From Candidatus Rokuibacteriota bacterium (GTDB taxonomy: Bacteria > Methylomirabilota > Methylomirabilia > Rokubacteriales > CSP1-6), in the NCBI GenBank assembly GCA_016184305.1, contig JACPCX010000026.1, positions 1 through 26,111 of the forward strand: DNA of 26,111 bases, given 5' to 3'. A program made the translations under genes and the position numbers. Below are positions 1 to 25,451 of this stretch, in pieces (position 1 is the first letter of the stretch; each line of letters begins with the position of its first letter). The notes under the pieces are model-generated. The model was not told the origin of the DNA, made no database searches, and saw only the letters and a list, made by a program, of their open reading frames with translations.

Positions 1-830
1 CCGCTCTCCGCCCTCGGTCCCGTCTCCCCACAGTGCCAGCTGCGCGGAGACCGCCTGCTGGATGACCCTCCGGTACGCCAGGTACGCGGCGCCGCGCGCC
101 CCGGAGCGGATGAAGTCCGCCTTGTTGAGCGTCAGGCACTCCGCCAGCGGCGGCGCCTCGATGAGGCCGCCCACGCGGTCGGGCGCGGCGGGAGTGAGGC
201 CCAGCCAGTCCCAGCCGCGCTTGATCACCTTCCCGAAGGTACTGATGGCGATCCCCCGGCGCTCCTCCGGGAGCGGCTCGGGCTCGCGGAGGAGATAGCC
301 AGCCGCCGAGGGCTTGCGCCTGCGCGCGAGACGCACGGCCATCGGGGCCGACTCGGTCGCGGCCCAGCCCTCCGGGTCGAGCCGAGCGCCGTTGAGGACG
401 AAGCGCACCCCGGAGGGGTAGTGCGCGGCGAGGATCTCCGCGAAGGCGGGGTCGAACAGTGGCTGGAACTGCCGGCGCAGCACGGCCTCGATGAAGCCTG
501 GATCGAGCAGCGGGGACAGGGCGTTGTCCAGCGTCAGCCGCACGGCCGTCCCCCGCGCGCCCACGAGCCCGGGCGGCGGCACCCACCGCCACGGGGCCCG
601 GTGGCGCGAGGCGAGCGCCCAGGCCGTCGCCACGTGGCGCTGACCCTGCCGCGTCTCGGTGAGGACCGCCCGGCAGAGCAGCAGCGCCACCTTGATGCCG
701 ACCCCCGCGAAGCCGATGCCCTCGCCCCTGACCTTACGATCTCGGTGAGGATGGTCTCCTCGGCAGGCCCGGGGTAAGCATCCCGCAGGTCTTCGAGGAG
801 ATGCAGCAGGTCCACGCGCGTCTCACCCAC
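1..830 (-). pseudogene. GHKL/HSP90-like ATPase-domain protein with internal deletion and frameshift at ~735; runs off the window edge
   Basis: ORF 534..830 starts MGETRVDLLHLLEDLRDAYPGPAEETILTEIV. After 736/735 a different frame reads KVRGEGIGFAGVGIK...STFGKVIKRGWDWLG...LTLNKADF and stays open to position 1. The N-box Asn and DxGxGM segment expected between ExxxN and the G-rich G2 box are missing. Confidence 0.7.
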
Positions 831-863
831 GGTTCGCGCTCCGGTCCCGGCCCGCCCGTGGTG

Positions 864-1925
864 CTAGTGCCGGCAAATGTAGATGCTGTTCTGCGGGCCG
901 GGGGCGTCCACCACCTCGACGCTCCGGAGGCCCGCCTCGGCGAGCATGCCCCGGGCGACCTGCTCGCCCCAGCAGGTGCCGAGCCCCGTGCCGCCCTCGG
1001 CGAGGGACACCGTCAGGCAGTGCAGCACGCTGATCCCGTACATGTACGGCGCGAACGGGTTGCCGATATTGTCCTCGAGCTGGCTCGAGGCCTTGGGCTC
1101 GATCATGAGGTAGACCCCGTCAGGCTCCAGCGCGCCGACGATGCGCCGGAGCACCGCCGCGGGATCGCGCTGGTCGTGGATGGCGTCGAACGAGGTGATG
1201 AGGTCGAACTTGGGCTCGGCAGCCAGCTGCGTGATGTCCAGCGCCTCGAAGCGCGCGTTGGCGAGGCCCATGGCCTCCGCCTCCGCCCTGCCGCGCGCGA
1301 TGGCGTCCTCGCCCCAGTCATAGCCGATGAAGCTCGAGGCCGGGTACTCCCGGGCCATCACGTTGACGGCGTGCCCCGTGCCGCAGCCCACGTCCGCCAC
1401 CCGGATGCCCGCCTTGAGCCGCTCGGGCAGCCCCTTGGCCGCGGGCAGGAACCCCTTGATCAGGAGCCCGTCGTAGAGGAGCCGCCACGAGGCGTCCTGG
1501 GACGCGGTGAAGTCGGGCCTGAACTCGCTGTACGGCACCCCGCCGCCGGTCCGGAAGCACTCGGCCACCTTCAGCATCCGGGCGGCCAGCATCGGCACCA
1601 GATGGCTGTTGGGCGCGAGGTTGCGGCTGGAAGTCCCGGTGAGGCAGAGGGCGTGCTCGGCCGGGAGCGTGAAGGTCTTCGAGGCGGCGTCGTACTCGAC
1701 GAGGCCGCCCGTAGCCATGGCGCCGAGCCACTCGCGCGTGTAGCGCTCCACGAGCCCGGCTCGGTCGGCGATCTCGCGGCTGGTGCCCGGGCCCTTCGCC
1801 ACAGCCTCGAAGAGCCCCGTGCGGTGGCCGACATCGACGAGCAGCGTGAGCAGGCTGCTCGTGTACAGCCCGAACACCTTCCGGGCGAACTCCTGGACGC
1901 GCTGACGATCGAGCTTCTGCTCCAT
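864..1925 (-). CDS. Class I SAM-dependent methyltransferase with N-terminal winged helix (Rv2258c-like)
   Basis: 353 aa; VADVGCGTGH motif I, FDLITSFDAIHD, N-terminal LVERYTREWL wHTH; GGAGGAGG RBS upstream. Confidence 0.93.
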   Translation of the reverse strand: MEQKLDRQRVQEFARKVFGLYTSSLLTLLVDVGHRTGLFEAVAKGPGTSREIADRAGLVERYTREWLGAMATGGLVEYDAASKTFTLPAEHALCLTGTSSRNLAPNSHLVPMLAARMLKVAECFRTGGGVPYSEFRPDFTASQDASWRLLYDGLLIKGFLPAAKGLPERLKAGIRVADVGCGTGHAVNVMAREYPASSFIGYDWGEDAIARGRAEAEAMGLANARFEALDITQLAAEPKFDLITSFDAIHDQRDPAAVLRRIVGALEPDGVYLMIEPKASSQLEDNIGNPFAPYMYGISVLHCLTVSLAEGGTGLGTCWGEQVARGMLAEAGLRSVEVVDAPGPQNSIYICRH

Positions 1926-2083
1926 GGGTCCTCCTCCGCATTGCGTGGCAGGCTGCCGCGGGCCCGGAGCCTCCGGGGGATCGGCGTTCCGGGGGTATCG
2001 AGCCCCGTCTAGCTGGAGGGATACTGCGCCGGCGACAGCGGCGCCGTCAAGGAGCGTCCGCGGCCTTCTTGAAGCCCGGGTGA

Positions 2084-2168
2084 CAGCTCTTCCTCGTCGA
2101 GGAGGGCGAACCCGTCAGAGGGCAGAGGCCTGGACCGCCGCGCTCGCGTCTATGACCAGCACGCTCAC
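2084..2168 (-). pseudogene. vapC: 5' remnant of a VapC/PIN toxin (frameshifted, truncated)
   Basis: GTGA overlap with the HTH gene stop. Reads MSVLVIDASAAVQAS (PIN first-strand xVxDAS motif), then after a 1-nt shift PSDGFALLDEEEL, and ends. Confidence 0.7.
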
Positions 2169-2410
2169 CGCCCCGCGCGCGATCGCCGCACGGAGTGGAC
2201 GACATTGGGCATGGCCTCCCCCGTGCTGGTCTTCTTCCAGGCCGGAGGCAGCGGCAGCACGTCCGGCTTGAAGAGACTCCTCAGGTCACCTTCGTCGACC
2301 ACGTGCTGCGTGCCCACCTTGCGGGCGCGCAAACGGCCCGAGCGAATCCAGCGACGGACCGTCTCGGGATCGCGTCCAAGCCTGGCGGCAACTTCCGGCA
2401 CGGTGAGCAT
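2165..2410 (-). CDS. Excisionase-like helix-turn-helix (HTH_17) protein, probable antitoxin
   Basis: MLTVPEVAARLGRDPETVRRWIRSGRLRA; translationally coupled to the vapC remnant; start 2410 preferred because TATGCT lies 7 nt upstream. Confidence 0.85.
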   Translation of the reverse strand: MLTVPEVAARLGRDPETVRRWIRSGRLRARKVGTQHVVDEGDLRSLFKPDVLPLPPAWKKTSTGEAMPNVVHSVRRSRAGR

Positions 2411-2417
2411 GTGTAAC

Positions 2418-2423
2418 AGCATA
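2418..2423 (-). promoter_or_regulatory. -10 box (TATGCT) for a probable leaderless transcript
   Basis: TATGCT-gttacac-ATG, no SD; no good -35. Confidence 0.5.
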
Positions 2424-2506
2424 CAAGACTACGGCCCGCCGCGGACGCCCCGGACGAAGCGGCGCGTGCGGCCGAGCGCGCGAGCCGACGCTGGATCCGG
2501 TGCCGG

Positions 2507-3070
2507 TCAGCTGCGCGGCGTGATCGGGCGATCGATGAGCACGGCGAGGAACAGCGCCGGTCCGCCATGGGCAGCCCAGGCGTGGCTGGTGCCGCGCTGG
2601 ATCACGATCTGGCCGGGTCTCAGCCGCGTCTCGCCGCTCTCCAGGATCAGGGACGCATCCCCCTTGAGGAGACAGATGACGTCGAGGGTGTGCGTCTCGT
2701 GCATCGCGTGATGCCGCGTCTGGTCCTGCAGGTGGGCGGCCGCACCCATGCGCGCGAAGGCCGCCTTGGCGGCCGCGTCCAGGGCCGCCTTCGGCGCGCC
2801 GGGCGGCGGCGGCTCGACGATGAACCAGCGCACCTTCACCTCGCCGCGCGCCGGCGACAGGACCGGCGCCCCTTTCGGCCCCAGGTCGCCGCCCCCCCGC
2901 GGGTCCAGGGGTGCCGAGGCCGCGTCGGCCCAGATCTCGAACAGGCCGCCGAGCCCCGCCTCGGCCATCACGGCGGAGGGGGGGCCGTCGACGATGATGA
3001 CCGACTGCCCCTTCGCGTCGTCCCCGGTGATGACCCGCCGCAACGCTTCTTCAAAGCCCGGATAACTCAT
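2507..3070 (-). CDS. Cupin-domain protein
   Basis: RRVITG..GQSVI N-terminus, MHETHTLD and VIQRGTSHAW cupin motifs; GGAGG RBS. Confidence 0.88.
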   Translation of the reverse strand: MSYPGFEEALRRVITGDDAKGQSVIIVDGPPSAVMAEAGLGGLFEIWADAASAPLDPRGGGDLGPKGAPVLSPARGEVKVRWFIVEPPPPGAPKAALDAAAKAAFARMGAAAHLQDQTRHHAMHETHTLDVICLLKGDASLILESGETRLRPGQIVIQRGTSHAWAAHGGPALFLAVLIDRPITPRS

Positions 3071-3364: not shown

Positions 3365-3775
3365 CTACTTCTTCTTGAGGAACTGAATACCCCGCAGGAT
3401 GGCGACGCCCTTGCCCTTGTTGGACACGTCGAGCACGATCCCCTCCTGGTGGAGCCAGCTCTCACCCGTCTTCTTCTCCGCGACCTTGTCCCCGTACTTG
3501 TAGGTGAAGGTGCCCTTCGTCACCCAGAGGATCTCGGTGGACCCCACCTTGAAGTCCTTCACGGCGGCCCCGGGATCCATCTCGAACTGAATGAGCTGGG
3601 CCTTCTCGATCCCCGGGAAGCCGGGCTCGAAGGTGTTGACCACCGCGAAGCGCACCGGCTCCTTCTTTGCCTTCTCCTGCTTTGCCTTCTCCTGCGCGAG
3701 CGCGGCGCCCCCCAGCATGACGCCCAGGGCGGACACGAGCATGAAGCCCACGGCCACTGTCCAGATCCTTCGCAT
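3365..3775 (-). CDS. Secreted/periplasmic cupin-fold protein
   Basis: Start at ATG 3775 after GAGGAG; signal peptide MRRIWTVAVGFMLVSALGVMLGGAALA|Q; beta-rich cupin pattern (EILWVTKG..GESW..N.G....L) with few His ligands. Confidence 0.75.
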   Translation of the reverse strand: MRRIWTVAVGFMLVSALGVMLGGAALAQEKAKQEKAKKEPVRFAVVNTFEPGFPGIEKAQLIQFEMDPGAAVKDFKVGSTEILWVTKGTFTYKYGDKVAEKKTGESWLHQEGIVLDVSNKGKGVAILRGIQFLKKK

Positions 3776-3862
3776 TGGGCTCTCCTCTCTCCTCGATGGT
3801 CGGTTGCCTCGCAGCCGGTCGGCGCCGCTCACCGACGCCGCCGCGTTCGCCACGTCGCGCAA

Positions 3863-3891
3863 CGGATAGCGCCTGGCCCGGGGGGTGTCAA
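3863..3891 (-). promoter_or_regulatory. Putative sigma70 promoter for the cupin gene
   Basis: TTGACA-17 nt-TATCCG; in repeat copy 2 the -35 is GTGACA. Confidence 0.5.
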
Positions 3892-4012
3892 CCCCGGATT
3901 TCGCCCCCGCAGGTTGACGGGGGGCGCGATCCTCGGAAGGTGCCGCGCTCGGTTCAGCACAAGATCCGCCAAGGCCGTGTAGACTGGCCTCGGCTGTCGC
4001 GTAGGTCCTTGC

Positions 4013-4051
4013 GTGCCCGTAGCTCGGCTTGATAGAGCATCGGCCTTCTAA
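4013..4051 (+). pseudogene. 5' half of tRNA-Arg(UCU), ending at the last base of the anticodon loop
   Basis: GTGCCCGTAGCTCGGCTTGATAGAGCATCGGCCTTCTAA matches 5888..5926 with 3 changes; the sequence after it is unrelated. Confidence 0.9.
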
Positions 4052-4294
4052 AGTGCCTAGACGCGTGTTGCGTGGTGTCCCTCTCGCTCACGCGGCGGAG
4101 CTATCGCCCTCTGTTCACGCGGCCTTCCGCTGCGATTGGCGAGACAGCGCCATGAGCGGGAGCGATACGGAGGGGGCGCAAGCGAGTCACCGCACTTCGA
4201 GAAAACTTCGCGTCGCTTTGCTCCCGGTTCCGACTGCCGCTCGCTCATTGCCCGCCGTAGACCATCGCGTAAACCTCTGAGCGGCCCGAGGCTT

Positions 4295-4486
4295 GACCGC
4301 CGGTTGTGCGCCAGCCGGTCGCGAATTCTGCCCTCTCCGGTGACCCTCAACGCACCGGGATCGGGTGCGCGCCGGACACTTGCAGCCGATCGATGGTGCA
4401 AGCGTAGCCAACTCTGGCCCCCTTCGGCGGCGCGCGCCCCGTCCGGGGTCCCCGTCCCCATGACATGATCTCCCAAATTCGGACGC
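4295..4486 (+). mobile_element. Orphan IS110/IS1111-like right-end non-coding region (candidate bridge/seek RNA), no transposase
   Basis: Shares AGCGTAGCYAAC and (A/T)TGACA-N10/11-ATTCGGACGC with the mini-IS110 at 5359..5592; stacked stems at 4299-4318, 4336-4376 and 4380-4401; left boundary approximate. Confidence 0.5.
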
Positions 4487-4525
4487 TGGCCGCGCCAGGA
4501 ACCACAGGAGCCGATGCCACAGTGC
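4473..4525 (+). repeat. ~52-bp direct repeat copy A (CCARATTCGGACGCTGGCCGC...CGATGCCACAGWGC)
   Basis: Aligns to 5579..5630 with a handful of differences. Confidence 0.9.
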
Positions 4526-4566
4526 TGCCGGGTGCCCTGCGCCGCGCCCCGGGACAGGCGCGCGCC

Positions 4567-4594
4567 ATGGTAATCCCGCATCGCGCCCTGTCAA
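4567..4594 (-). promoter_or_regulatory. Putative sigma70 promoter with no obvious downstream gene
   Basis: TTGACA-16 nt-TACCAT overlapping the DUF5615 stop codon. Confidence 0.5.
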
Positions 4595-4965
4595 CGCCGT
4601 TTCCTGCGGTCGCGCGACCCGCCTGCCCGGCGGGTGTCCTCGACGGTGATAATCGCCCCAGCCTTGGCGTCGGACTCGAGGCTCGGCAGGACGCGCTCGA
4701 GGATGGCGTCAACGAGCTCGATGCGCGAAGAGGAGAGGCGCAACGAGATGAGCGACGGCGCCCGTCCTCCTGCGAACGCCAGGATCGCCGAGAAGCGGAG
4801 ATCCTGGGTGAGGATGACACGGTCGTCCTGGATGGCGCGGGCGACAATGGCCTCGTCCGCCGAGGTCGCCGGCATGATCTCGTTGATGCGCGCCACGTCA
4901 TGGCCACGGGCCTGCAGAGATCGCACGGTGCGCGGCGAGATGTGCATGTCGGCGAGGAGCCTCAT
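4591..4965 (-). CDS. DUF5615 family PIN-like toxin (C-terminus possibly clipped)
   Basis: MRLLADMHISP...GHD...DEAI...VILTQDLRF; ATGA overlap with the DUF433 gene. Confidence 0.88.
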   Translation of the reverse strand: MRLLADMHISPRTVRSLQARGHDVARINEIMPATSADEAIVARAIQDDRVILTQDLRFSAILAFAGGRAPSLISLRLSSSRIELVDAILERVLPSLESDAKAGAIITVEDTRRAGGSRDRRKRR

Positions 4966-5180
4966 GCAATCGCCGAGGTCGTCTCACTCGCCAGCCAGGC
5001 GCCGTACTTGGCGGCCTGGTAGACGTCCTCCTTCTCCAGTTCGGGATACTCCTTGACAATCTCGTCGGCCGTGTAGCCGTCGCCGAGCAGCTTCAGCACA
5101 AAGTCCACCGTGATGCGCATCCCGCGGATGGTGGGCTTGCCATCACAGACCCGAGGGTCAACGGAGATCCGGTCCAACAT
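4962..5180 (-). CDS. DUF433 family antitoxin
   Basis: RISVDPRVCDGKPTIRGMRITV...EIVKEYPELEKEDV. Confidence 0.93.
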   Translation of the reverse strand: MLDRISVDPRVCDGKPTIRGMRITVDFVLKLLGDGYTADEIVKEYPELEKEDVYQAAKYGAWLASETTSAIA

Positions 5181-5186
5181 GCTTCC

Positions 5187-5215
5187 AGGTTACTCGGTAC
5201 GAGGTGAATCGGCAA
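5187..5215 (-). promoter_or_regulatory. Leaderless sigma70 promoter with small operator-like palindrome
   Basis: TTGCCG-17 nt-TAACCT-6 nt-ATG; CTCG-gta-CGAG at 5193..5203 in the spacer. Confidence 0.65.
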
Positions 5216-5358
5216 CACCGGTGCATCGGCGATATCCGGCCCGGCCACGGGGGCGCAAGCCGTCCGCCGCTGCGATAGGGGCGCACCCCGGCGCCCGCCT
5301 TATCCCTCGGAACCTCCCGCCCGCGCGGGTCACCCGGAGCGCACCACGTCGCGAGCGT

Positions 5359-5592
5359 AGATGTCATGAAGCGGCTGGCCTCTCGCTCGACGTGGTGGCA
5401 TAGACTGCCCCACAAGAGCTACTCGCGCTCAACGGCGCAGAGAGGAGAGGCCAGCCATGGACCATATTGGCGTCGACGTCGACAAGAAGGGAGCGTAGCT
5501 AACACAATGGGTGTCGGGGGGCGGGTGCGGCCGAGGCCGGGGCGGCGCCGTCGGGTGGGGCGCCGCTTGACACAACAGCCAGATTCGGACGC
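5359..5592 (+). mobile_element. Internally deleted mini-IS110 (left end + first codons of transposase + right end)
   Basis: GAGGAG RBS then MDHIGVDVDKK at 5457 (IS110 DEDD N-terminal GxDxxK motif); perfect 12-bp IR 5373-5384/5445-5456; outward-facing TTGACA at 5567-5572; ends approximate. Confidence 0.7.
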
Positions 5593-5692
5593 TGGCCGCC
5601 CCAGGAGCCCAGGAGTCGATGCCACAGAGCCGATGCCACAGAATGTCTCGATGGCCTCTGAACTGATGTCCGAGCTGTAGATGATGCCACAG
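5579..5692 (+). repeat. ~52-bp repeat copy B plus two further GATGCCACAG motifs
   Basis: GATGCCACAG at 5618, 5632 and 5683 (also 4513). Confidence 0.9.
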
Positions 5693-5926
5693 TCGGCGCC
5701 GCTCACCGGCGCCGCCGCGTTCGCCACGTCGCACAACGGATAACGCCTGGCCCGGGGGGTGTCACCCTCGGATTTCGCCCCCGCGAGGTTGACGGGGGGC
5801 GCGATCCTCGGAAGGTGCCGCGCTCGGTCCAGCACAAGATCCGCCAAGGCCGTGTAGACTGGCCTCGGCTGTCGCGTAGGTCCTTGCGCGCCCGTAGCTC
5901 AGCTGGATAGAGCATCGGCCTTCTAA
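5692..5926 (+). repeat. Direct repeat copy 2 (~235 bp): upstream region and 5' half of the intact tRNA
   Basis: Aligns to 3818..4051. Confidence 0.95.
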
Positions 5927-5964
5927 GCCGAGGGTCGCAGGTTCGAATCCTGCCGGGCGCGCCA
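5888..5964 (+). tRNA. tRNA-Arg(UCU)
   Basis: 77 nt; acceptor stem GCGCCCG/CGGGCGC, D arm GCTC/GAGC, anticodon stem TCGGC/GCCGA with loop CTTCTAA, GGTTCGAATCC T arm, encoded CCA. Confidence 0.98.
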
Positions 5965-6014
5965 TTGTCTTTCAGGGACTTCCACCGCGGCGCCTTCCAC
6001 GCCGCCAGGCCTGA

Positions 6015-6080
6015 GTGCCGGTTTTAGTGCCGGTTGCGCCCTCGGGATTGCTCTTCGCTCGCCGGCGGGCGCGCATGCGC
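6015..6080 (-). pseudogene. Extreme 3' remnant of a tyrosine integrase gene, with tandem GTGCCGGTT repeat
   Basis: 6015 GTGCCGGTTTTAGTGCCGGTTGCGCCCT aligns to 7453 GTACCGGTCTTGCTGTCGGTGGCGCCCT (EGATGTKTGT vs KGATDSKTGT). Confidence 0.65.
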
Positions 6081-6095
6081 GCACGGGAGAGGCCA

Positions 6096-6554
6096 TCAGG
6101 CTCGTCGGGGCCCTCGGGGCTTGAAGAGCATCTGGACTCTGCCGGAGCGGGCGATCCTTGCAATGAATGGCGGCTCGTGTCGGATGGAAAACCTGGCGAT
6201 GTGGGGCAAGGCGGCCACCACGGTCGCCGCCATCTCGGGACCAGTCAGATCGCCACGGGTCAGGACGAACGCACGGACGCCACCGGCGATGAGAGCCGCC
6301 TGTTCAGTGAGGCGGTACCGGATCTTCGCGTCCTTGGTGATTACCGCCCATCCCCGCCGCCCGACTTCAGGAAGCCACTCCTCGTCTCGAGCGTCCTGAG
6401 GGAAGTGGTCATCGTGGACGTGGACCTCGATACCCTGCATCCGGAGGGCGTCGGGGATGGCGTGTCGGCCGAGGGACCGATCGATGAAGAGAGGTGGCGG
6501 CTGGCTAGGCGGCTTCGAGCGGGAGCTCGCAGCGGAGGGCTTCCTGGATCTCAA
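6096..6554 (-). CDS. VapC45-like PIN toxin
   Basis: FIDRSLG...HDDHF...DEEWL...GWAVITKDAKIRY; overlaps the 3' end of the antitoxin. Confidence 0.88.
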   Translation of the reverse strand: MRSRKPSAASSRSKPPSQPPPLFIDRSLGRHAIPDALRMQGIEVHVHDDHFPQDARDEEWLPEVGRRGWAVITKDAKIRYRLTEQAALIAGGVRAFVLTRGDLTGPEMAATVVAALPHIARFSIRHEPPFIARIARSGRVQMLFKPRGPRRA

Positions 6555-7155
6555 GGGGACCTCGTTCGTAGTCCCGGGCGAGGTCGTCGACCGATTCCCC
6601 CGCCTTGAAGCGCTCCGCGATCACTGCCGTTGCGATTCCCGTCCCCGTCAACACCGGGCGTCCAAAGGAGACGAACGGATCGATCACGATGGCCCTCGGC
6701 TCTTCCGGCTCGCGCTTCCTGATGAAGGGAAAGAGGCGAATGGGCAGCCCCTTCAGATCCCAATCGATGCGGCGGAGGTAAGCCCTCACCAGCTCGCGCA
6801 TCGCCAGCTGCCCGTCCTGCGTCAAGTTGATGAGCAGGCCCGCCTTGTCGATGAAGAGATCCAGGCCGTCTGTCTCGAACCGGTATTCGGCGAGCGGATG
6901 CCTGGAGCTGTAATGCCGTTCGAGGAACGCCACCGCCGAGCGCACCTTGCGAAGGGAGATCTCGTGCTGGCGACGGATGGCCTCGAGGATGTGCGCCTCC
7001 ACCAGATTGACGAAGGACAGCACCGGCCACTCTGGCTGGGGTAGGCGGATGACGGGTCTGAAGAACTCCCGGCCCCTGGCGGTCGGGTAGAACCGTCCGA
7101 GAACCCACGACCTCAGGGTCGCCGTGGGCATCCGAAGATACCTTGCCGCGTCCAT
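6505..7155 (-). CDS. VapB45/Rv2018-like antitoxin (HTH + DUF433); true start probably further upstream (~7224-7232)
   Basis: AARYLRMPTATLRSW, LSFVNLVEAH, IDPFVSFGRP..GTGI...RFKAGES; the family-like GRDPREIPAY lies in frame upstream of ATG 7155. Confidence 0.88.
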   Translation of the reverse strand: MDAARYLRMPTATLRSWVLGRFYPTARGREFFRPVIRLPQPEWPVLSFVNLVEAHILEAIRRQHEISLRKVRSAVAFLERHYSSRHPLAEYRFETDGLDLFIDKAGLLINLTQDGQLAMRELVRAYLRRIDWDLKGLPIRLFPFIRKREPEEPRAIVIDPFVSFGRPVLTGTGIATAVIAERFKAGESVDDLARDYERGPLEIQEALRCELPLEAA

Positions 7156-7392
7156 GAGCCCGTAGGCGGGGATCTCCCTGGGATCCCGGCCCGTCTCGAT
7201 CGTTGGATGCCTCTGAGCCTTGATGATGACATTCCCCCTGGCTGGAGTTTACCTCAAGAGGCTCTCGATCGATCCAAGGGCCGATGCTGTGGCACCGTCA
7301 TGCGCCCATCCGGGCGACCTGGCCTTGAGCCACCTCACCAGAACCCAGCAGCCCAGAAGGTCGCCTCGGCATCGCAGAGGGCTCCAGCGGGG

Positions 7393-7408
7393 TGCCGGCC
7401 GCGCCCCA
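7393..7408 (+). repeat. Possible degenerate tRNA 3'-end fragment (att scar)
   Basis: TGCCGGCCGCGCCCCA vs tRNA end TGCCGGGCGCGCCA; ~45 bp from an integrase 3' end, like the real tRNA (~50 bp). Confidence 0.4.
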
Positions 7409-7439
7409 TCGGCTCTCAGGCCTCCGTAGCGCATCACCG

Positions 7440-7832
7440 TCATTGGGACGTGGTACCGGTCTTGCTGTCGGTGGCGCCCTTGCGTGCGGAGTTCGCGAGC
7501 CGCTCGACTGCCGTCCGCATGTGGTCCGGGCTCAGGTGCGCGTACCGCTGGACCATCACCTGGGTCTTCCAGCCTCCCGCCCGCTGTACCGTGTAGAGGT
7601 TCACGTCGGCCATCGCCGGCCGCTCGCGCTGGATGAGCTTGGGGCAGCATTCCTGTCGCGCCTTGCGGGCGTCTCGCACCTCGGCGCGCCTGGCCTTGTG
7701 CTCCTCCCCGGCGGCCGGCTTCGAGTCGCCGCTCGGCTGCCGGTGGTCGTGGCCCAGGGAGCAGGCCCACCGGATCCACCATTGCCCGTCCCGCTCGAAC
7801 ACGCCGCTGACCTTCGGCCCCCGTGTCGTCAT
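7440..7832 (-). pseudogene. Tyrosine integrase with in-frame internal deletion
   Basis: N-terminal arm-binding-like GVFERDGQWWIRW is joined at ~7620 to C-terminal AMADVNLYTVQRAGGWKTQVMVQRYAHLSPDHMRTAVERL; core-binding domain and HxxR missing; GGAGG RBS. Confidence 0.85.
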
Positions 7833-7883
7833 CGCGCCCTCCGCGTCCCCCGCCGTCGCGCGGCCGGGAAGAAATCCCGCCAG

Positions 7884-8366
7884 TCACTGGTCACGCGTCC
7901 CGCGCCGGCGCGTCCAGAGCCGTGGGTCGAAGCTGAAGGGCCGCGGCGTGCCGACCCGGACCGTCCGGAAGGCCGGGTGCAGCGGGTTGACGACGAAGTT
8001 CCGCTCGTGGGGAATGATCGCGGATGGCACGGCGAGCACCGCGGTCTCGCGCGCCCGCGCCCAGGCCGTGCCGAGGTCGGTGACCGCGGCCGGCGCGGGC
8101 ACCGACCGCCAGTCCGGCGGCAGCTCGCGGGCGGAGACGTCGCGGACGCGCAGGGTGTCCGGGATCTCCGCCGGCGTGGCCATCCACTCCCCCTGCACGT
8201 GCTCCACGTCCGCGTGCACCAGGATCTCCAGCGCCGCCAGCGAGAGCGTGGCGGAGGCGTAGACGAGGGGCACCCCGGGCCAACCCCACCGCCCGCCCCA
8301 CTGGCGCGCGCCCTCGCCATCGAAGGCGACATGGGGCGCGCGCGCGAGTCGCCAGACCCGGGTCAG
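7884..8366 (-). CDS. RES-domain toxin (NAD+-consuming family)
   Basis: VWRLA..FDGEGARQWGGRW..VYAS..LAALEILVH..LAVPSAIIPHERNFVVNPLHP..FDPRL; start placed at the CTGA overlap. Confidence 0.92.
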   Translation of the reverse strand: MTRVWRLARAPHVAFDGEGARQWGGRWGWPGVPLVYASATLSLAALEILVHADVEHVQGEWMATPAEIPDTLRVRDVSARELPPDWRSVPAPAAVTDLGTAWARARETAVLAVPSAIIPHERNFVVNPLHPAFRTVRVGTPRPFSFDPRLWTRRRGTRDQ

Positions 8367-8818
8367 CTGTAGATCCCGCGCGCCAGCCGCTGCAGGATCG
8401 TCTCGACCTCGCGCGCCCCGACCTCGGTGGAAAGCAAGTGCAAGGGCGCCGCGCCGGCGAGCGCGCGGTTGGGAGCGCGCAGCCACCCCGCGGCGCGCTC
8501 CGGCGCGCCGAGCACCTCCTCGGCGAGGGCCCCGATGCGCGCGAGCCGCAGCAGCCGATCGGACTCGTCGGGCGGCAGACGCCGCGCGAGCTTGCGGCGA
8601 GCCAGGGTGCGCCTGGGGATGCGCAGGACGGCGACGACCTCGTTCCCCGTCAACGCGTAGCGCGCCACGAGCGTGGCCAGCGCCGCATACGGCAGCCCGG
8701 CGCGGACCCGTTCGTGCAGCGTCTGGTAGGTCGCCGTCACCTCGCGCATTCCGAGCGATCGGCCCATCACCGCCGCCATCTGCCGCGCCGTCACCGCCCC
8801 CGCCGCCGAGCGTGCCAT
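8363..8818 (-). CDS. Xre/MbcA/ParS antitoxin
   Basis: VRAGLPY, IPRRTLARRK, ESDRLLRLARI, WLRAPNRALAGAAPL, VETILQRLARGIYS. Confidence 0.93.
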   Translation of the reverse strand: MARSAAGAVTARQMAAVMGRSLGMREVTATYQTLHERVRAGLPYAALATLVARYALTGNEVVAVLRIPRRTLARRKLARRLPPDESDRLLRLARIGALAEEVLGAPERAAGWLRAPNRALAGAAPLHLLSTEVGAREVETILQRLARGIYS

Positions 8819-8855
8819 CTGGCCTCAGCATACGGCCAGATGGCCGACCTGGCAA
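8814..8855 (-). promoter_or_regulatory. xre-res promoter with inverted-repeat operator
   Basis: TTGCCA-17 nt-TATGCT-8 nt-ATG; perfect 11-bp IR GCCATCTGGCC/GGCCAGATGGC (8814-8824/8834-8844) brackets the -10. Confidence 0.8.
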
Positions 8856-8951
8856 GGCGGGGGCCGGGGGGGTCGTTCAGACTATCCTGTGGCGGAAGAG
8901 GTCTGCCGGAAACCGAGGCGCGTTGCCGCGGGCTGGCGCGGGAGGGACGGC

Positions 8952-9131
8952 ATGACGGGCAGGGGCAGGCCGGGAACTCTGGTGCGCGCGGCGAGCGGCG
9001 CGGAGAGCCGGGCCGGACAGGTCTGGCGGTGGAAGAAACTCCTCCAGCCCACCGCGTCCGCGGAAAGGCTGCGCGCCGTGCCGCCGGCGCCCGATCTCGA
9101 CGCGGTGCCGCCGGCGCGCGAGCCGCCCTGA
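8952..9131 (+). CDS. Possible 59-aa hypothetical protein
   Basis: GGAGG 6 nt before ATG 8952; fills the gap between xre and the cyclase; no recognised domain. Confidence 0.35.
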   Translation: MTGRGRPGTLVRAASGAESRAGQVWRWKKLLQPTASAERLRAVPPAPDLDAVPPAREPP

Positions 9132-9156
9132 GCCGCCCGCCCGCCCGCGCTCCCCG

Positions 9157-9945
9157 TCAGCCGCGCCGGCTGGCCGGCCCGTCCGGCTCCGCCGCGAGGC
9201 CGCGCATCCGGAACACGCGATGCGGGTGGCGAAACCCGCGTAGGTGCATGCTGCCCACCAGCTCCGCGCACACGTGGCCCTCGACCGCCGCCATGACGCG
9301 CTCGCAGACGAGGGTCTCGGCGGCATGCGCCCGCCCGCAGAGGCGCGAGGCAAGGTTGGTGACGCTGCCAATGGCCGCGTAGTCCCAGCGGTCCTCGGTG
9401 CCGATAAGGCCCACGGTGGCGAACCCGTGGCTGACGCCCACGCCCAGGCTGAGCGCGGCGCCGTGCTGACGCCAGCGATGGGCGAGCGCCGCCACGGCGG
9501 ATTGCGCCGCCAGGGCGAGCGATACCGCGCGGAGCTGCGGGTCCGGGACCGGGACCGGGTCGTTGAAGAACGCCATGATGCCGTCGCCTGCGAAGCGCTC
9601 GAGCATGCCGCCGTGGTCCTCGACGAGCCGGCCCACCGCGCGGTGATAGTCGCGCAGGACGGCCATCACGTCCTCGGGCTCGGCACCCTCGGAGAAGGCC
9701 GTGAAGCCGCGCAGGTCGAAGAAGGCCACCGTCACCTCGCGGCGATGGCTGAGCAGCGCCGACTCATCGGCGGCCAGGACCAGCTCGCGCGGGGGCGACG
9801 AGACGAATCGCCGCAGCCGGTCGATGACGGCGGGTAACCTGTCTGGTGGCTCCACGCCATCCGGCGGCACGAGTGCCGGGTAGGCGTAGCCGTTGCGTCC
9901 TGACTGCCGGCGCTCAACCTGAGTGGTGCTGTGCATGTCGGGCAT
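9157..9945 (-). CDS. Stand-alone class III adenylate/guanylate cyclase-domain protein
   Basis: FFDLRGFTAFSE, ERFAGDGIMAFF, GSVTNLASRL; start at ATG 9945 after GAGGAG, downstream of the sigma54 promoter. Confidence 0.9.
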   Translation of the reverse strand: MPDMHSTTQVERRQSGRNGYAYPALVPPDGVEPPDRLPAVIDRLRRFVSSPPRELVLAADESALLSHRREVTVAFFDLRGFTAFSEGAEPEDVMAVLRDYHRAVGRLVEDHGGMLERFAGDGIMAFFNDPVPVPDPQLRAVSLALAAQSAVAALAHRWRQHGAALSLGVGVSHGFATVGLIGTEDRWDYAAIGSVTNLASRLCGRAHAAETLVCERVMAAVEGHVCAELVGSMHLRGFRHPHRVFRMRGLAAEPDGPASRRG

Positions 9946-9972
9946 GGTCGATCTCCTCGTGCACTTCTTATC

Positions 9973-9987
9973 GCAAGAGGAGTGCCA
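9973..9987 (-). promoter_or_regulatory. Sigma54 -24/-12 promoter for the cyclase gene
   Basis: TGGCAC-TCCTC-TTGC, exact consensus spacing. Confidence 0.88.
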
Positions 9988-9992
9988 CGTCA

Positions 9993-10085
9993 TACGCCTT
10001 TGAAAACATATACTTGCAGTCGACATCGCGAGTAATTGCGCAGAGATAGATCATTTCTCTTGAGCAATTGACCAATTTCTCGATC
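9993..10085. promoter_or_regulatory. AT-rich enhancer region: IHF-like site and candidate activator-binding repeats
   Basis: TTTCAA-AGGC-GTA (minus strand, 10005..9993) resembles WATCAANNNNTTR; GATCATTTCTC at 10049 and GACCAATTTCTC at 10070 are 21 bp apart. Confidence 0.5.
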
Positions 10086-10098
10086 CTGGTGCCAAGGC

Positions 10099-13000
10099 AT
10101 GAGTATGCAGACCCAGGCCGAGATCCTTGGACGCGGCCCGGCTATCCAGGCCGTCCGGAAGTCGATACAGCGGCTTCTCGACCGGCTGCAGGACTCACCG
10201 CGGCCGCCGGCCGTGCTGATCGAGGGCGAGACCGGGACGGGCAAGGGCCTGGTCGCTCGCCTCCTCCACGAGCGCGGCCCGCGCGCGGCGGGGCCGTTCG
10301 TGGACGTCAACTGCCCGGCGATCCCGGACCAGCTGCTCGAGAGCGAGCTGTTCGGCTACGAGCGCGGTGCGTTCACGGACGCCAAGCGCAGCAAGCCCGG
10401 GCTGCTCGAGAGCGCTCACCGCGGGACGATCTTCCTGGACGAGATCGCCCTGCTCCCCGAGGGGCTGCAGGCCAAGCTCCTCAAGGTGCTCGACGAGCGC
10501 GTGGTGCGGCGGCTGGGCGCGACGCGCGGCGAGCCAGTCGATTTCTGGCTGCTGGCGGCCACGAATGCCGATCTCGTGGCCGCGGTGCGCCGTGGGCGCT
10601 TCCGCGAGGATCTCTACCAGCGGCTGGCCGTGGTCCGGCTCGGGCTGCCGCCGCTGCGCGCGCGGGGCGAGGACATCGTGCTCCTGGCCGAGCACTTCCT
10701 GGCCCGCGCCGCGGCGGAGCACGGGCTGCCGCCGCGCGCGCTCTCGGACGACGCGCGCGAGGCGCTGCGGCGCAATGCCTGGCCGGGCAATGTCCGCGAG
10801 CTCGCCAACGTGATGGAGCGGGTGGCGCTCCTCGCGGAGGGAGACCGGGTGACGGCGAGCGCGCTCGACCTGCGCCAGCCAGCGGCCGAGCCGCAGCCGG
10901 GGCCGGGCGAGGCGGCGCCCGTGGGGCGGACCCTCGAGGCGGTCACCCGCGATCATCTGCGCGCGGCCATCGCCGAGGCCGGGGGTAATCTCTCTCGCGC
11001 GGCGAGCGCGCTCGGGATCTCGCGCAACACGCTGCGCGCGCAGATCCGGCGGCTCGATGTCGCGGTCACACCCACCCGCGGCCGGCCCCGCCGGCAGTTT
11101 CCCGCCGCCCCTGCGCCGGCCGCGGCCCTGCCGGCGCCCGAGCCCCCGCGCCTGCCGGCCGCCACCCCGGCGGTGACCGTGCGCTGGGAGCGCCGGCGGC
11201 TGACCTTGCTCCGCGCCGCGCTCGGGCCCGAGGGGGCGGGCGCGCTTGATCCGGGGCGCGCCCTGGAGGGCATCGTCGACAAGGTGCAGGCGTTCGGCGG
11301 CCGCATCGACGAGCTGTCGACCGCGTCGGTGGGCGCCGTCTTCGGGCTCCAGTCCGGGGACGATCCCTCCCGCCTCGCCGTGCAGGCGGCGCTGGCCGTC
11401 GTGAAGAGCCTCGAGCGGCTGCGCGTGGCCGCCGATCCGCTGCAGGTGCGCGTGGCGCTGCACACCGGCACGATGCTGGTCGGGCACATCGGCGCGGAGG
11501 TCCAGCTCGAGCGGTCCGAGAAGGCGGCGGCCACCGCCGTCCTCGACGAGGTTGCCGAGGCCTGCGCGCCCGGCATGGTCGCGGTGAGCCCGGTGACGGC
11601 GGCCTTCCTCGAGCGGCGATTCGACCTGCGCCCGCTCGGCGGACCGCCCCCGGTGGCCCAGGCGGTGAGCGGACCCGAACGGCGCGGCTTCGAGACGCTC
11701 CGGCGGCAGAGCGCGCTGATAGGCCGCGAGCAGGAGCTCGGGCTGCTGGTCTCGCGCTGGCGTGCGGCGCAGGACGGCCAGGGCCAGCTCGTGCTGCTGG
11801 TCGCGGAGCCGGGTATGGGCAAGTCGCGCCTGGTGTGGGAGTTCCTGGGGTCCGAGCACGCGCGCAGCGGGCACGTGCTCGACCTGCACGCGAGCCCGAC
11901 CGGACAGTCGTCGGCCTATGGCCCGCTCCTGGACCTTCTTCGCCGGTACTTCGAGATCGCCTCCGAGGACGACGACCGCGGTGTCCGCGCCAAGGTTGCG
12001 GCCAAGCTGGCGGTGCTCGCGCCGGAGGGGCCCGACCCGGCGCCGGCGCTGCTCGCCTTCCTCGGCCTGGAGCCCGGCGATCCGGAGTGGTCGGATCTGA
12101 CCGCCCCCGACCGCGCGCGCGAGGTCCGCGACGCCCTGCGCCGCCTGCTGCTGGCCGAGGTCAAGGCCCGGCCCGTGCTGCTGGTGATCGAGGACCTGCA
12201 CTGGCTCGACGCCGGCTCGCGTGAGCTCCTGGAAGCGCTCGCCGAGGGGCTCGCCGCGATCCCGCTGATGCTGCTGGTGACCTCGCGGCCGCCCATCGCG
12301 CACGGCTGGGGCACGGTCGGCGTCCTCACCCAGTTCTCGCTGGCTCCGCTCGGCCGCGAGCGGGCCCGCGAGCTCCTCGACGCGCTGCTGGGGGCGCACC
12401 CGAGCCTGGATGCCCTGCGCCGCAGCATGCTCGACCGCGCCGGGGGCAACCCGTTCTTCCTCGAGGAAAGCGTGCGCGCGCTCGTCGACAGCGGCGCGAT
12501 CGCCGGCGCGCCCGGGGACTATCACCTGGCGTCCAGCGCGCTCGCCCTGCCGCTGCCGCCCACGGTCGAGGAGCTGGTGGCGGCGCGGGTCGCGAACCTG
12601 CCCGCGCCGCTGCGGCAGATCCTGGAGGCGGCCGCCGTGCTCGGCCGCGAGACGCCGCGCTCGGTGCTGGCGGCGGTGCTGGGCGAGCCGGCGGCGGTGG
12701 TGCGCGCCAAGCTGGCCGAGCTGCGCCGCCTCGACCTCGCCGCCGAGATCGGCGCGGGCGACGATCCGATGGTGCGCTTCCATCACCCACTCCTGCACGA
12801 GGTCGCGCTGGCGCGCGTGACGGACGAGGCGCGCCGGGCCATCCACGAGCGCGCGTACACGACACTGCGGGCCCGCGCGCGGCCGGGCCTCGCCGACGAC
12901 ACGGAGCAGCTCGCGCGGCACGCGTTCCACGGCGGGCGCTGGGACGAGGCGGTCGAGCTGCTGGAGGCGGCGGCGCGCACCGAGGCGCTGCGGGCCACTC

Positions 13001-14190
13001 ACGCCGAGGCGGCCGCCCACCTGGAGATGGCCCTCGTGGCGCTGGGCCACCTGCCCGAGACCCCGGAGCACGTCGCGCGCGGCATCGACATCCGGCTCAC
13101 GCTCAAGTCGAACCTCACCGAGATCGGGGCGCACGCGCGTGTGCACGAGCACCTCGAGGCGGCGGAGGCCGCCGCCGCGCGCCTGGGCGACGTGGGGCGG
13201 CTGGCGCGGGCGGCGGCGTTCCTCAGCGACTACCATCGGCTGCTGGGGCAGCGGGCCGCCGCCCGTCGCCAGAGCGAGCGGGCGCTCGATCTCGCCCTGG
13301 CGGCGGGCGACGCGCGCCTGCAGGTGGTCGCCGGCACCTACCTCGGCATGGTGCTGCACGGCGAGGGCGATTACCCCGCGGCGATCGCGTGCTTCCGGCG
13401 CAACCTGGCGAACCTCACCGGGGCGATCGCGCGCGAGCGCCTGGGCACGACGGGGCTGCCGGCGATCCACTCACGGACCTGGCTCGCGTGGGCCCTGTGC
13501 GAGACGGGCGACTTCGGCGAGGCCGAGCGCGCCGCCGAGGAGGCGATGCGCATCGCGGCCGAGCTGCCGCAGCCGATTCACGCGGTGGTCGCGTCCGCGG
13601 GGCTGGGCCGGGTGCAGCTGCGGCGCGGGCATCCGGAGGCGGCCCTGCCCGTGCTCGCCCAGGGGCTCGAGCTGTGCCGCCGCCACGGCATCGCTTTCTG
13701 GCTGCCCGGCCTGGCGTCGGCCCTGGGGCTGGCGCTCGTGCGCGCCGGCCGGCGCGAGGAGGGCCTCGTCTTGCTGGAGGAGAGCGTGCACCGCGGCCAG
13801 AGCGACCGCGCGCTCGCCGGGCAGGCGCAGCGCGAGACGTGGCTGGGCGAGGGCTACCTGCTCGCCGGCCGCCTGGACGACGCGCGCGCGGCGGCGGGGC
13901 GGGCGATCGACATGGCGGGCCGGTACGAGCAGCGCGGCACGCTGGTCTGGGCGCGCTGGCTGCGCGCGGAGATCGCCAGGCGGTCCGGGAACGGCCGCGC
14001 CGCCGTCGAGGAGCATCGCGCCGTGGCGGAGGCCGCGGCCGCGCTGGGGATGCGGCCGCTGGCCGCGCTGGCCGGGTTGGGGCTCGCGCGGGCGCTCGCG
14101 AGCCTCGGCGAGACGGCCGAGGGCCGCCGGGTCGAGGATCAGGCGCGGGCGGCGCTCGCCGCGCTCGAGATGGCGGCCCCGCTCGACTGA
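10099..14190 (+). CDS. Sigma54 activator AAA+ / Fis-type HTH / degenerate class III cyclase / STAND (AAA_16-like) NTPase / TPR fusion protein
   Basis: GETGTGK, ESELFGYERGAFTDA, FLDEI, RFREDLY, WPGNVREL; GGNLSRAASALGISRNTL; FGGRIDEL..VFG and VRVALHTG; LIGREQEL, AEPGMGKS, LLVIEDLHW, GGNPFFLEE; helical TPR-like tail. Confidence 0.93.
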   Translation: MSMQTQAEILGRGPAIQAVRKSIQRLLDRLQDSPRPPAVLIEGETGTGKGLVARLLHERGPRAAGPFVDVNCPAIPDQLLESELFGYERGAFTDAKRSKPGLLESAHRGTIFLDEIALLPEGLQAKLLKVLDERVVRRLGATRGEPVDFWLLAATNADLVAAVRRGRFREDLYQRLAVVRLGLPPLRARGEDIVLLAEHFLARAAAEHGLPPRALSDDAREALRRNAWPGNVRELANVMERVALLAEGDRVTASALDLRQPAAEPQPGPGEAAPVGRTLEAVTRDHLRAAIAEAGGNLSRAASALGISRNTLRAQIRRLDVAVTPTRGRPRRQFPAAPAPAAALPAPEPPRLPAATPAVTVRWERRRLTLLRAALGPEGAGALDPGRALEGIVDKVQAFGGRIDELSTASVGAVFGLQSGDDPSRLAVQAALAVVKSLERLRVAADPLQVRVALHTGTMLVGHIGAEVQLERSEKAAATAVLDEVAEACAPGMVAVSPVTAAFLERRFDLRPLGGPPPVAQAVSGPERRGFETLRRQSALIGREQELGLLVSRWRAAQDGQGQLVLLVAEPGMGKSRLVWEFLGSEHARSGHVLDLHASPTGQSSAYGPLLDLLRRYFEIASEDDDRGVRAKVAAKLAVLAPEGPDPAPALLAFLGLEPGDPEWSDLTAPDRAREVRDALRRLLLAEVKARPVLLVIEDLHWLDAGSRELLEALAEGLAAIPLMLLVTSRPPIAHGWGTVGVLTQFSLAPLGRERARELLDALLGAHPSLDALRRSMLDRAGGNPFFLEESVRALVDSGAIAGAPGDYHLASSALALPLPPTVEELVAARVANLPAPLRQILEAAAVLGRETPRSVLAAVLGEPAAVVRAKLAELRRLDLAAEIGAGDDPMVRFHHPLLHEVALARVTDEARRAIHERAYTTLRARARPGLADDTEQLARHAFHGGRWDEAVELLEAAARTEALRATHAEAAAHLEMALVALGHLPETPEHVARGIDIRLTLKSNLTEIGAHARVHEHLEAAEAAAARLGDVGRLARAAAFLSDYHRLLGQRAAARRQSERALDLALAAGDARLQVVAGTYLGMVLHGEGDYPAAIACFRRNLANLTGAIARERLGTTGLPAIHSRTWLAWALCETGDFGEAERAAEEAMRIAAELPQPIHAVVASAGLGRVQLRRGHPEAALPVLAQGLELCRRHGIAFWLPGLASALGLALVRAGRREEGLVLLEESVHRGQSDRALAGQAQRETWLGEGYLLAGRLDDARAAAGRAIDMAGRYEQRGTLVWARWLRAEIARRSGNGRAAVEEHRAVAEAAAALGMRPLAALAGLGLARALASLGETAEGRRVEDQARAALAALEMAAPLD

Positions 14191-17953: not shown

Positions 17954-18261
17954 AGGGCTCGAGATACGGCGCGCGGGGCGGTGAGGAGCGGCCCCCGAGG
18001 GCCGCGACGCGACCATCTAGGGGCCAGGCCGGCCTTTCACGGTCCGCTCAGCGGGTCTCCTCGATCGACGGCGCCTGCCGCCAGGGCAGCCGTCTGCGCG
18101 GCTCACGCAGCCCTTGACGGCGCCCCTGTCCCGGGAGCAGGATCGCCGCAGGACCCGGATCAGAGCCGGGCGGTCCCGGCTCCAGGGAGGGCTCCGGGGC
18201 CGGCGGCTCGACGACGCTGGGGTCGTTCAGGGGGTCTGGAGGCCCGCTGCATGGGGCCGCG

Positions 18262-18353
18262 TGATGCGAACTGGCGGTCATGTTCCCTCTGGGCCGCCGA
18301 GCGGCTCACGCGAAGTGTTCGGGTGGACCGACGACCGCGGCGTCACGACCTGA
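18262..18353 (+). pseudogene. Possible signal peptide + DUF4124-like remnant
   Basis: LAVMFPLGRRAAHA then, after a 1-nt shift, EVFGWTDDRGVT (resembles VYxWxDxxGv). Confidence 0.35.
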
Positions 18354-18453
18354 ACCGATCGGCTCGACAGCGTCCCCGAGCGCGATCCGCCCAGGGGCAG
18401 CGCCAGCGCCGATCATCCCTGCACATTCGCATGAGTCCGAAAGGAGTCTCTCG

Positions 18454-19473: not shown

Positions 19474-19496
19474 CGCGCGGCGCGGCCACGACGCGC

Positions 19497-20291: not shown

Positions 20292-20295
20292 GCCG

Positions 20296-21964: not shown

Positions 21965-22126
21965 GCGACGGCGGCGAGCTGGCCCGGGAGCGTTCCGCTG
22001 GCCGGACGCATCCGGGGTCGCGCGTGGATCGAGGTCGAGCGCCGCTCGACGATGCCGCTGTGAGCTCCGAGGAACCGGCGCAAGCGCCGGTTCCGGGCCG
22101 GGCGCTGTAAACCAGGAGACGACACG

Positions 22127-24429: not shown

Positions 24430-24504
24430 ACGCGGGACCGGCGCGAGCGGTAGGTGAAGCGCGGCGGCGCTTCTCCAGGAAAACGATGTCCCCATGCCCT
24501 CCGG

Positions 24505-24533
24505 TTGACACGGTCCCGCCTCTAGCGTAGCGT
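24505..24533 (+). promoter_or_regulatory. Sigma70 promoter for the second ABC operon
   Basis: TTGACA-17 nt-TAGCGT. Confidence 0.7.
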
Positions 24534-24629
24534 CTCCGCGTAACTTGCGAGAGCCGAGATGGAGGGCGGTGACGGGAGCGCACCCCATCGAGGAGCCAGG
24601 CCGTTCAGCGTAAGCGGGGGGGGCGTGTC

Positions 24630-25448: not shown

Positions 25449-25451
25449 GCG

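Follow-up and report, generated by a model that had tools for sequence, protein, structure and literature searches.

A probable one-ended IS1111-type relic bordering a repeat that flanks toxin-antitoxin modules in Rokubacteria

The locus and its neighborhood

The window analyzed here is a whole contig (C156) of 26,111 nucleotides from a Candidatus Rokuibacteriota genome (G000; 3.2 Mb in 239 contigs, 88.8% complete). Two toxin-antitoxin pairs are recognized by Pfam in its first third: DUF5615/DUF433 on the minus strand (4591-5180) and PIN_10/DUF433-HTH (6096-7155). Between them lie a tRNA-Arg(TCT) gene (5888-5964) and three adjoining plus-strand features, namely the hexamer GAGCGT (5353-5358), a 132-base insertion sequence (IS) relic (5359-5490) and R3, a complete copy of an interspersed repeat that we call R (5491-5631; profile match 5490-5631, E 1.6e-25, and family alignments). 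An uninterrupted plus-strand copy, R1, is found on the far side of the DUF5615/DUF433 pair (4397-4526; profile E 9.2e-24). An Rfam scan of window 3500-7500 and of three full-length loci of the related IS returned the tRNA-Arg as its sole match; the leader of the IS, its 3' non-coding region and R each lacked a family match.

The region from about 3365 to 7880, which includes the tRNA-Arg, the toxin-antitoxin pairs and the IS relic, is 91-100% identical to G003:C22:48195-54198, from another species-level genome of the same genus, which carries 89 bp extra near window position 4632 or so. Window 1-2823 is found on a different contig of G003, and 7880-26000 has no syntenic match in that genome. 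In G001, the toxin-antitoxin genes are 92% identical and their context is unrelated.

A direct duplication of 234 bp, 96% identical, links window 3818-4051 with 5692-5926. It consists of the region upstream of the tRNA-Arg and the first 39 nt of the gene, and stops within the anticodon loop (...CTTCTAA|). Because the 5' part of the tRNA-Arg is duplicated, 4052-5691 resembles an insert at the tRNA gene that brought its own 5' half and promoter; R1, the DUF5615/DUF433 pair, the IS relic and R3 all lie within this putative insert. Inserts at tRNA genes usually involve the 3' half, and the arrangement seen here is the reverse. Further on, a minus-strand ORF of 130 aa (7440-7832) matched nothing in Pfam at E 0.001; in its ends we see a resemblance to a tyrosine integrase's N-terminal and C-terminal parts (...RYAHLSPDH...).

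A left end shared by many Rokubacteria

The relic starts with seven terminal bases, AGATGTC, followed by the left subterminal inverted repeat ATGAAGCGGCTGGCC (5366-5380, plus strand), which was delimited by right-end alignment and by a motif scan of the loci and of G000. A structured leader of 91 nt and 11 transposase codons complete it. An earlier note, made from the letters of this stretch, had drawn attention to a ribosome-binding site and to a frame reading MDHIGVDVDKK from 5457. Both are present, as GGAGAGG and an ATG at 5457, and the frame continues with GA and a stop at 5496-5498. The whole residual frame on the plus strand, MDHIGVDVDKKGA (5457-5498), takes codons 1-11 from a transposase gene and its final two codons and stop from the adjoining repeat R.

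With window 5340-5500 as a query, 39 of 61 related genomes proved to contain left ends 80-94% identical to the relic, frequently more than one each; the matching stretch is 5353-5490. Most alignments end at query position 151, that is, at window 5490, and similarity to the IS copies of relatives ceases exactly there. The abrupt change of sequence near GGAG that the earlier note had remarked upon is thereby located at 5490/5491. On the other side, GAGCGT or a near variant precedes the left end in 13 of 19 loci of relatives, whose upstream DNA is otherwise unrelated. IS1111 geometry places the first base of the element at 5359, which is where the note had begun it.

These 19 left-end loci fall into three groups: six are long, two are cut by contig ends, and the remaining 11 are truncated at 11 different points (positions 103-271). 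Stumps retaining only the left end are common in this IS family. One candidate, L023, was considered as a second stump followed by a complete target and rejected, since its GCATAG more likely belongs to the terminal bases of a right end (CATAGA), so that L023 would be an internal deletion. G000 itself holds a second stump of the same left end, 60 bp long and 85% identical, on the minus strand of C239 (30650-30710). Directly adjoining it is an enoyl-CoA hydratase gene missing about 108 N-terminal profile positions, and a ParE module and a copy of R lie 1 kb upstream.

A conserved leader fold over the ribosome-binding site

A perfect 12-bp inverted repeat (5373-5384/5445-5456), also reported in the earlier note, forms the outer helix of a predicted plus-strand leader fold (5373-5456) that covers the Shine-Dalgarno sequence GGAGAGG and encloses two inner hairpins. 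The note's proposal that this hairpin sequesters the ribosome-binding site agrees with the preservation of the helix across 25 left ends. Their consensus fold has 22 pairs and -32.2 kcal/mol. Three leader pairs change on both sides among the 25 sequences; in the outer helix two pairs do so (UA in 13 and CG in 9; CG in 12 and UA in 11). Leader cells are paired in 98.4% of cases, against 41-54% when partners are slid by 1-3 columns, and all 500 shuffles scored below the observed covariation of 0.133, although the covarying changes amount to few independent events because the sequences form two clades. The repeat is thus a conserved feature of the family and not a product of chance. The hairpin is a legacy of the active element, where it most likely restricts translation of the transposase.

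We also considered whether the stump has been kept for a role in the host, such as that of a promoter, a leader or a small-peptide unit ahead of R3 and the tRNA-Arg. Its leader fold and start codon are intact and it is 100% identical in G003, but the surrounding 2.4 kb are also 100% identical there, so that this identity is uninformative about selection. Moreover, the other stumps break at 11 different points, and His9 of the transposase, which full-length copies keep, is Asp in the relic. We regard a host role as very unlikely.

Full-length relatives and their true right end

In four loci (L015, L016, L018 and L029) the same ATG starts an ORF of 347-352 aa. The L015 and L016 products match PF01548, DEDD_Tnp_IS110 (E 3.7e-16, 59.7 bits for a cut-off of 29), and PF02371, Transposase_20 (E 1e-23 to 2e-25, 84-90 bits for a cut-off of 21.3), which bears out the earlier assignment of the relic to an IS110-family left end and transposase start. 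In all four, about 270 nt of conserved non-coding DNA separate the stop codon from the right end, and the right terminus of full-length copies reads ...TTGACA-N2-GGCCAGCCGCTTCAT-AGA. GGCCAGCCGCTTCAT is the inverted partner of ATGAAGCGGCTGGCC; full-length copies have it at their right end, and the window lacks it. Outside the subterminal repeats, full-length copies carry AGATGGG on the left and AGA on the right, that is, seven and three bases when the shared AG is assigned to the left end. Joining the two ends on paper yields TTGACA-17-GAAGAT, a predicted circle-junction promoter. The note had expected an outward -35 at right ends of this kind, and TTGACA is indeed seen there in full-length relatives.

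Excerpts of PMC11187229 describe IS1111 members as having subterminal repeats, with seven bases outside the left repeat and three outside the right, and a long non-coding region 3' of the gene, and use these features to distinguish them from IS110 proper. Judged by sequence, the parent of the relic is an IS1111-type element (ISfinder "IS110 family") with a DEDD transposase. The transposase is at most 38.7% identical to any plasmid match in PLSDB; the family is widespread in Rokubacteria and apparently uncatalogued.

No matching transposase was found in G000, where the best identities were 32-33%, to other IS110-family genes on C229 and C224. These two genes were rejected as partners of the relic, being 30-33% identical to the family transposase and lacking the left end. 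Elsewhere, G001 holds a single full copy and G002 one to three; in G003 there are only fragments. A search with the L015 gene and right end revealed one right-end relic in G000 (C7:19905-20090), and the right-end motif occurs in that genome only at C7:20067-20089. Against C156, the same query matched 5457-5490 only.

The repeat that follows the junction

R3 begins GAGCGT|AGCTAAC..., continues through a variable GC-rich middle to TTGACA (5567-5572), and then reads ...TTCGGACGCTGGCCGCCCCAGGAGCC...GATGCCACAG. The R family is about 115-140 bp long and has about 10 copies in G000 (10 strong and three partial profile matches). Its consensus starts with GGAGCGTAGCCAACAT, has a variable GC-rich middle followed by (T/G)TGACA, ACTCGGACGC and CCCAGGAGCC (often doubled), and ends GATGSCACAG; uninterrupted copies start GAGCGT-AG-CCAAC. 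The TTGACA that the earlier note had assigned to the right end of the element is really present, but it sits inside R and is a conserved R motif. Furthermore, nothing ends at 5592, where the note had seen the end of the element: R continues to about 5631. A blastn comparison of 5491-5700 with 19 oriented IS loci matched only the orthologous G003 locus. On these alignments R3 is no part of the IS.

Other copies of R in G000 are found on C114 (1-133 and 1087-1199), C7 (20090-20205 and 21318-21396), C239 (31672-31791), C123, C11, C38 and C18. Several bracket toxin-antitoxin modules: HepT/MNT on C114, PIN and DUF433 on C7, ParE on C239, and DUF5615/DUF433 in the window. Copies around these modules are spaced about 1.0-1.2 kb apart, and in three of the four R-bounded modules of G000 the genes are antisense to R. 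We detected no supported RNA fold shared by R copies (consensus -1.4 kcal/mol, 10 pairs, none supported). Single-strand DNA folds differ among subfamilies, with a long bulged hairpin in C239 and G002_C248 that the C114 type does not form. The 3' end of R was also considered as a ribosome-binding site and start codon, and this was rejected because the downstream frames, read by eye, are short and unrelated.

Insertion target and putative guide segment

The left edge of R, GAGCGT|AGCCAACAT, is the insertion target of the IS family. Compared across loci, the target reads GAGCGT|AG(C/T/G)C(A/G)ACAT; GAGCGT stays on the left of the IS and the remainder of R on the right. The right-end relic on C7 runs directly into a copy of R, and five right-end junctions in this and related genomes (L032, L052, L062, L063 and L065) abut stretches recognized by the R profile. 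In L063 the repeat resumes at AG-TCAAC, the same point as in C123 and C38, where the uninterrupted sequence is GAGCAT-GG-TCAAC or GAACGC-AG-TCAAC.

The 3' non-coding region of the full-length elements contains a 9-mer, placed after a conserved anchor, whose sequence is reverse-complementary to the right flank; beyond it, GCGT-AGATGG corresponds to the left flank followed by the left end. Examples of such pairs are ATCGTTCCT with AGGAACGAT (L029), GACTTCCT with AGGAAGTC (L066) and GTGTTGCCT with AGGCAACAC (L051). The 9-mer matches its own flank at 8 or more of the nine positions in 9 of 21 right-end-bearing copies (four of them at 9/9), against 7% of 416 non-self pairings, with a mean match of 6.9 for own and 5.7 for non-self flanks. 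One of the perfect matches, L049, comes from an unpublished genome; leaving it out gives 8 of 20, three at 9/9. The fit to the own flank is poor in five of the 21 copies (at most 5/9 in L015, L050, L061 and L072, and 6/9 in L018). L015 (G001:C171) and L050 (G060:C79), two copies in different families, have homologous DNA as their right flank, AGCGCGGYACG...CCAGAAACTGG, and their guide segment does not match it; this could be an off-target site or a longer variant of the right end.

In the parts of PMC11187229 that deal with IS1111 elements, the same order is given: the complement of the target top strand first, then left flank and left end. A segment that covaries with the flank follows the logic of a seekRNA, and we refer to it as a putative guide.

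These observations also bear on the idea that R itself comes from another IS1111-like element, as a miniature version or right end of it, which would make 5359-5631 a chimeric composite with two ends. R starts with the same GAGCGTAG as the IS junction, and its TTGACA is followed by ..CCAG.., loosely like the TTGACAcgGCCAGCC of the true right end. However, GAGCGT-AG is explained as the target: uninterrupted copies of R have it in unrelated surroundings, and the bases after it are those with which the non-coding guide pairs. R also lacks a copy of the subterminal repeat, and it was not seen within the elements of the other two IS110-family genes of G000, the nearest case being one weak partial R about 1.9 kb from the C229 gene, beside an integrase fragment. 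We consider this composite highly improbable.

The junction at 5490 in metagenome contigs

The joint between relic and repeat could in principle be an assembly chimera of a multi-copy IS end with a repeat. Both sides are repetitive, and in four metagenome runs the depth of the left end exceeds that of its flanks 10-fold to over 200-fold. Against this, in two groundwater metagenome runs there are contigs that span 5490 with 0-1 differences (record 4 of X1, covering 5449-5815, and record 21 of X3, covering 5459-5614), and a second assembly has the joint at 100% identity (G003:C22), with the limit that the sample behind G000 may also be the source of G003 and of the four runs. A chimera is extremely unlikely in our assessment, and the earlier note's deletion or rearrangement joint at GGAG is supported. 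In one other run, contigs that leave the fit at 5490 continue with AAAGCCAGATCTG, the transposase gene of intact copies. The excess depth of the left end indicates that intact relatives are abundant in the community.

Among the contigs of the four runs we saw neither a joint removing 5359-5490 nor a circle-type joint, contigs being prone to drop rare variants. One apparent joint that goes back 1627 positions was set aside as the duplication of 5692-5926 at 3818-4051. In run X3, a single weak record, a 433-nt contig with a depth of 3.8, joins 4397 to 5351 and thus places GAGCGT and the IS left end directly after the DNA to the left of R1. It may come either from a strain without the 953-bp unit of R1 and toxin-antitoxin pair or from a strain with the IS in R1. 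The ancestral full-length insertion at this locus was present in none of the genomes or contigs searched, and a metagenome scan for the ancestral or empty site with a 25-mer from the left junction gave 0 loci. The single locus returned by a 21-mer scan was a chance match in unrelated DNA and was dropped. RNA runs hold 0.05-0.06 of the words of the stretch.

The earlier note had combined these elements into a two-ended, non-autonomous mini-IS110 that had arisen by an internal microhomology deletion and could be mobilized in trans. The left end is genuine, the GGAG joint leaves 1-4 bases of possible microhomology, a TTGACA lies downstream, and matching elements are abundant in the community, all of which suits such a derivative. 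Yet the stretch with the TTGACA is R, which occurs about 10 times without the IS left end and is unlike real right ends, and neither a right subterminal repeat nor any right-end sequence lies anywhere in the window. No excision joint or circle junction was seen among the contigs, from which rare forms could escape. The two halves, predicted by the note to hit opposite ends of one IS110, proved to belong to unrelated elements when searched separately. As to mobilization, excerpts of PMC11187229 describe mini-IS experiments with ISEc11 that combine left end and left flank with right end and right flank, plus transposase and seekRNA, whereas the locus has one end only and the assembly no matching transposase. 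We judge a two-ended mini-IS extremely improbable.

Origin and meaning of the relic

The reading that we favor, and hold to be very probably correct, is that 5359-5490 is a one-ended relic of an IS1111-type element at the left edge of R, left behind by a later deletion or rearrangement and now immobile. From what was observed, namely the homology and its boundaries, the missing right end and, in relatives, the way guide and target correspond, we infer the following order of events and mechanism of deletion. An IS1111-type element would have entered the left edge of a copy of R, between GAGCGT and AG. It would have possessed a DEDD transposase, subterminal repeats, a long 3' non-coding region presumably giving a seekRNA, and an outward -35 at its right end. 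A later deletion or rearrangement would then have removed everything from transposase codon 12 through the right end, joining the stump to the left boundary of an intact copy of R. Since the relic has no guide region, transposase or second end, it cannot form a circular intermediate and is immobile. Multi-copy insertion sequences are often missing from assemblies, and given 88.8% completeness and 239 contigs an intact copy could be present in the cell.

One oddity of the locus deserves attention. After the stump comes a complete R that brings its own GAGCGT, so that the left half of the target occurs twice. An internal deletion of an IS within the same R would leave only the right half (AGCTAAC...); the order left flank, stump, left flank, right flank therefore calls for two copies of R or some other event. 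The simplest account is that two copies of R were neighbors, that the IS entered the first, and that a deletion took out what lay between codon 12 and the edge of the second. Copies of R that are close together or in tandem are found in G006:C78, G033:C62 (331 bp apart) and G029:C232 (98 bp apart). The joint, AAGAAGG|GAGCGT, has 1-4 bases in common with the IS sequence AAGAAGGAGAGCC, which fits illegitimate recombination but is no proof of it.

The stump itself is a product of ordinary genome decay, a dead IS remnant that matters little except as a pointer. Tracing it exposed a widespread, apparently uncatalogued IS1111-type family in Rokubacteria. In natural copies of this family across many genomes, the guide segment varies with the insertion flank, as the seekRNA principle would predict, and the preferred target is the border of a repeat that flanks toxin-antitoxin modules. 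The locus also calls for caution in annotation: an outward TTGACA and a change of identity beside an IS end do not amount to a second end, and each half needs to be traced to a full-length element before a two-ended IS is called.

Comparison with known systems

In retaining one end and a few codons, with no partner end and many differently truncated siblings, the relic is like ordinary IS remnants; there is no difference of substance, and the only oddity is the duplicated left half of the target.

Its full-length relatives agree with the IS1111 family as represented in excerpts of PMC11187229 (ISEc11, ISKpn4, ISPa11 and IS4321/IS5075). They share with it the transposase, the subterminal repeats, the non-coding region and the -35, as well as one fixed target and orientation and the order of guide segments. 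IS1111 elements are seekRNA-guided (Siddiquee et al. 2024, PMC11187229). The difference is that the window keeps only the first 132 bases and that the family described here is known from sequence alone. The bridge-RNA layout of IS110-type elements was not found in this family: the 98-nt leader forms a hairpin occluding the ribosome-binding site, and the segments matching the target lie 3' of the gene.

A second comparison concerns the target. ISPpu9 and ISPa11 are IS110/IS1111 elements that insert into REP repeats, according to excerpts of PMC12288879 and PMC11187229. As far as these excerpts go, the likeness lies in a short interspersed repeat with hairpin potential used as target, in one position and orientation of insertion, and in scattered partial modules and relics. 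R differs from REP in that its ends are conserved in primary sequence, its middle is variable and it borders toxin-antitoxin modules. REP units are also shorter than R (115-140 bp).

The third comparison is with the IS1111-attC group. Members of this group (ISPa21, ISPst6 and ISKpn4) target integron cassettes at their attC sites, according to excerpts of PMC3001079. The family described here resembles them in that the IS lies at one end of a repeat bordering cassette-like modules and antisense to the genes in three of four modules. R differs from attC in lacking the canonical RYYYAAC...GTTRRRY pair: its ends are AGCCAAC and GATGSCA, in which five of seven positions could pair, and there is no GTT; nor was a fold detected that its subfamilies share.

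Of the 61 relatives, 16 carry integron integrases above the NCBIfam cut-off (14 of 59 when two unpublished genomes are left aside); the 14 control genomes gave no match at this level. In G006:C78 an intact IntI of 375 aa (L121 2362-4196; 462 bits for a cut-off of 265) has 1.5 copies of R 530-880 bp upstream, in the divergent arrangement expected for a cassette array. The IntI and R copies stand directly before a dppB-like gene, and between them is a fragment that by eye looks cysS-like. In G000, an IntI-like fragment of about 100 codons, truncated at both ends, lies at C229:6319-6780 (L102 1327-1788; 122 bits, TIGR02249 model positions 65-160); a partial R lies upstream at about 100 bp, and another IS110-family gene downstream at about 1.5 kb. 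R adjoins intI in only one of the roughly 10 intI loci examined, plus this one fragment. About 10 other intI loci have no R within the DNA fetched, and the truncated intI genes of G001 (C2 and C4) have neither R nor a repeat array. Among the papers listed in a literature search, none relevant combined Rokubacteria, integrons and attC.

We may nevertheless speculate, as an unlikely but serious possibility, that R copies serve a non-canonical cassette system of Rokubacteria as its recombination sites, that this system is kin to or descended from integrons and shuffles toxin-antitoxin modules, and that the IS is a seekRNA-guided lineage specialized on the edge of R. If so, the succession of left flank, stump, left flank and right flank would record a cassette recombination at the boundary of R, beside a site disrupted by the IS, and not a random deletion, and the IS family would be the counterpart of the IS1111-attC group.
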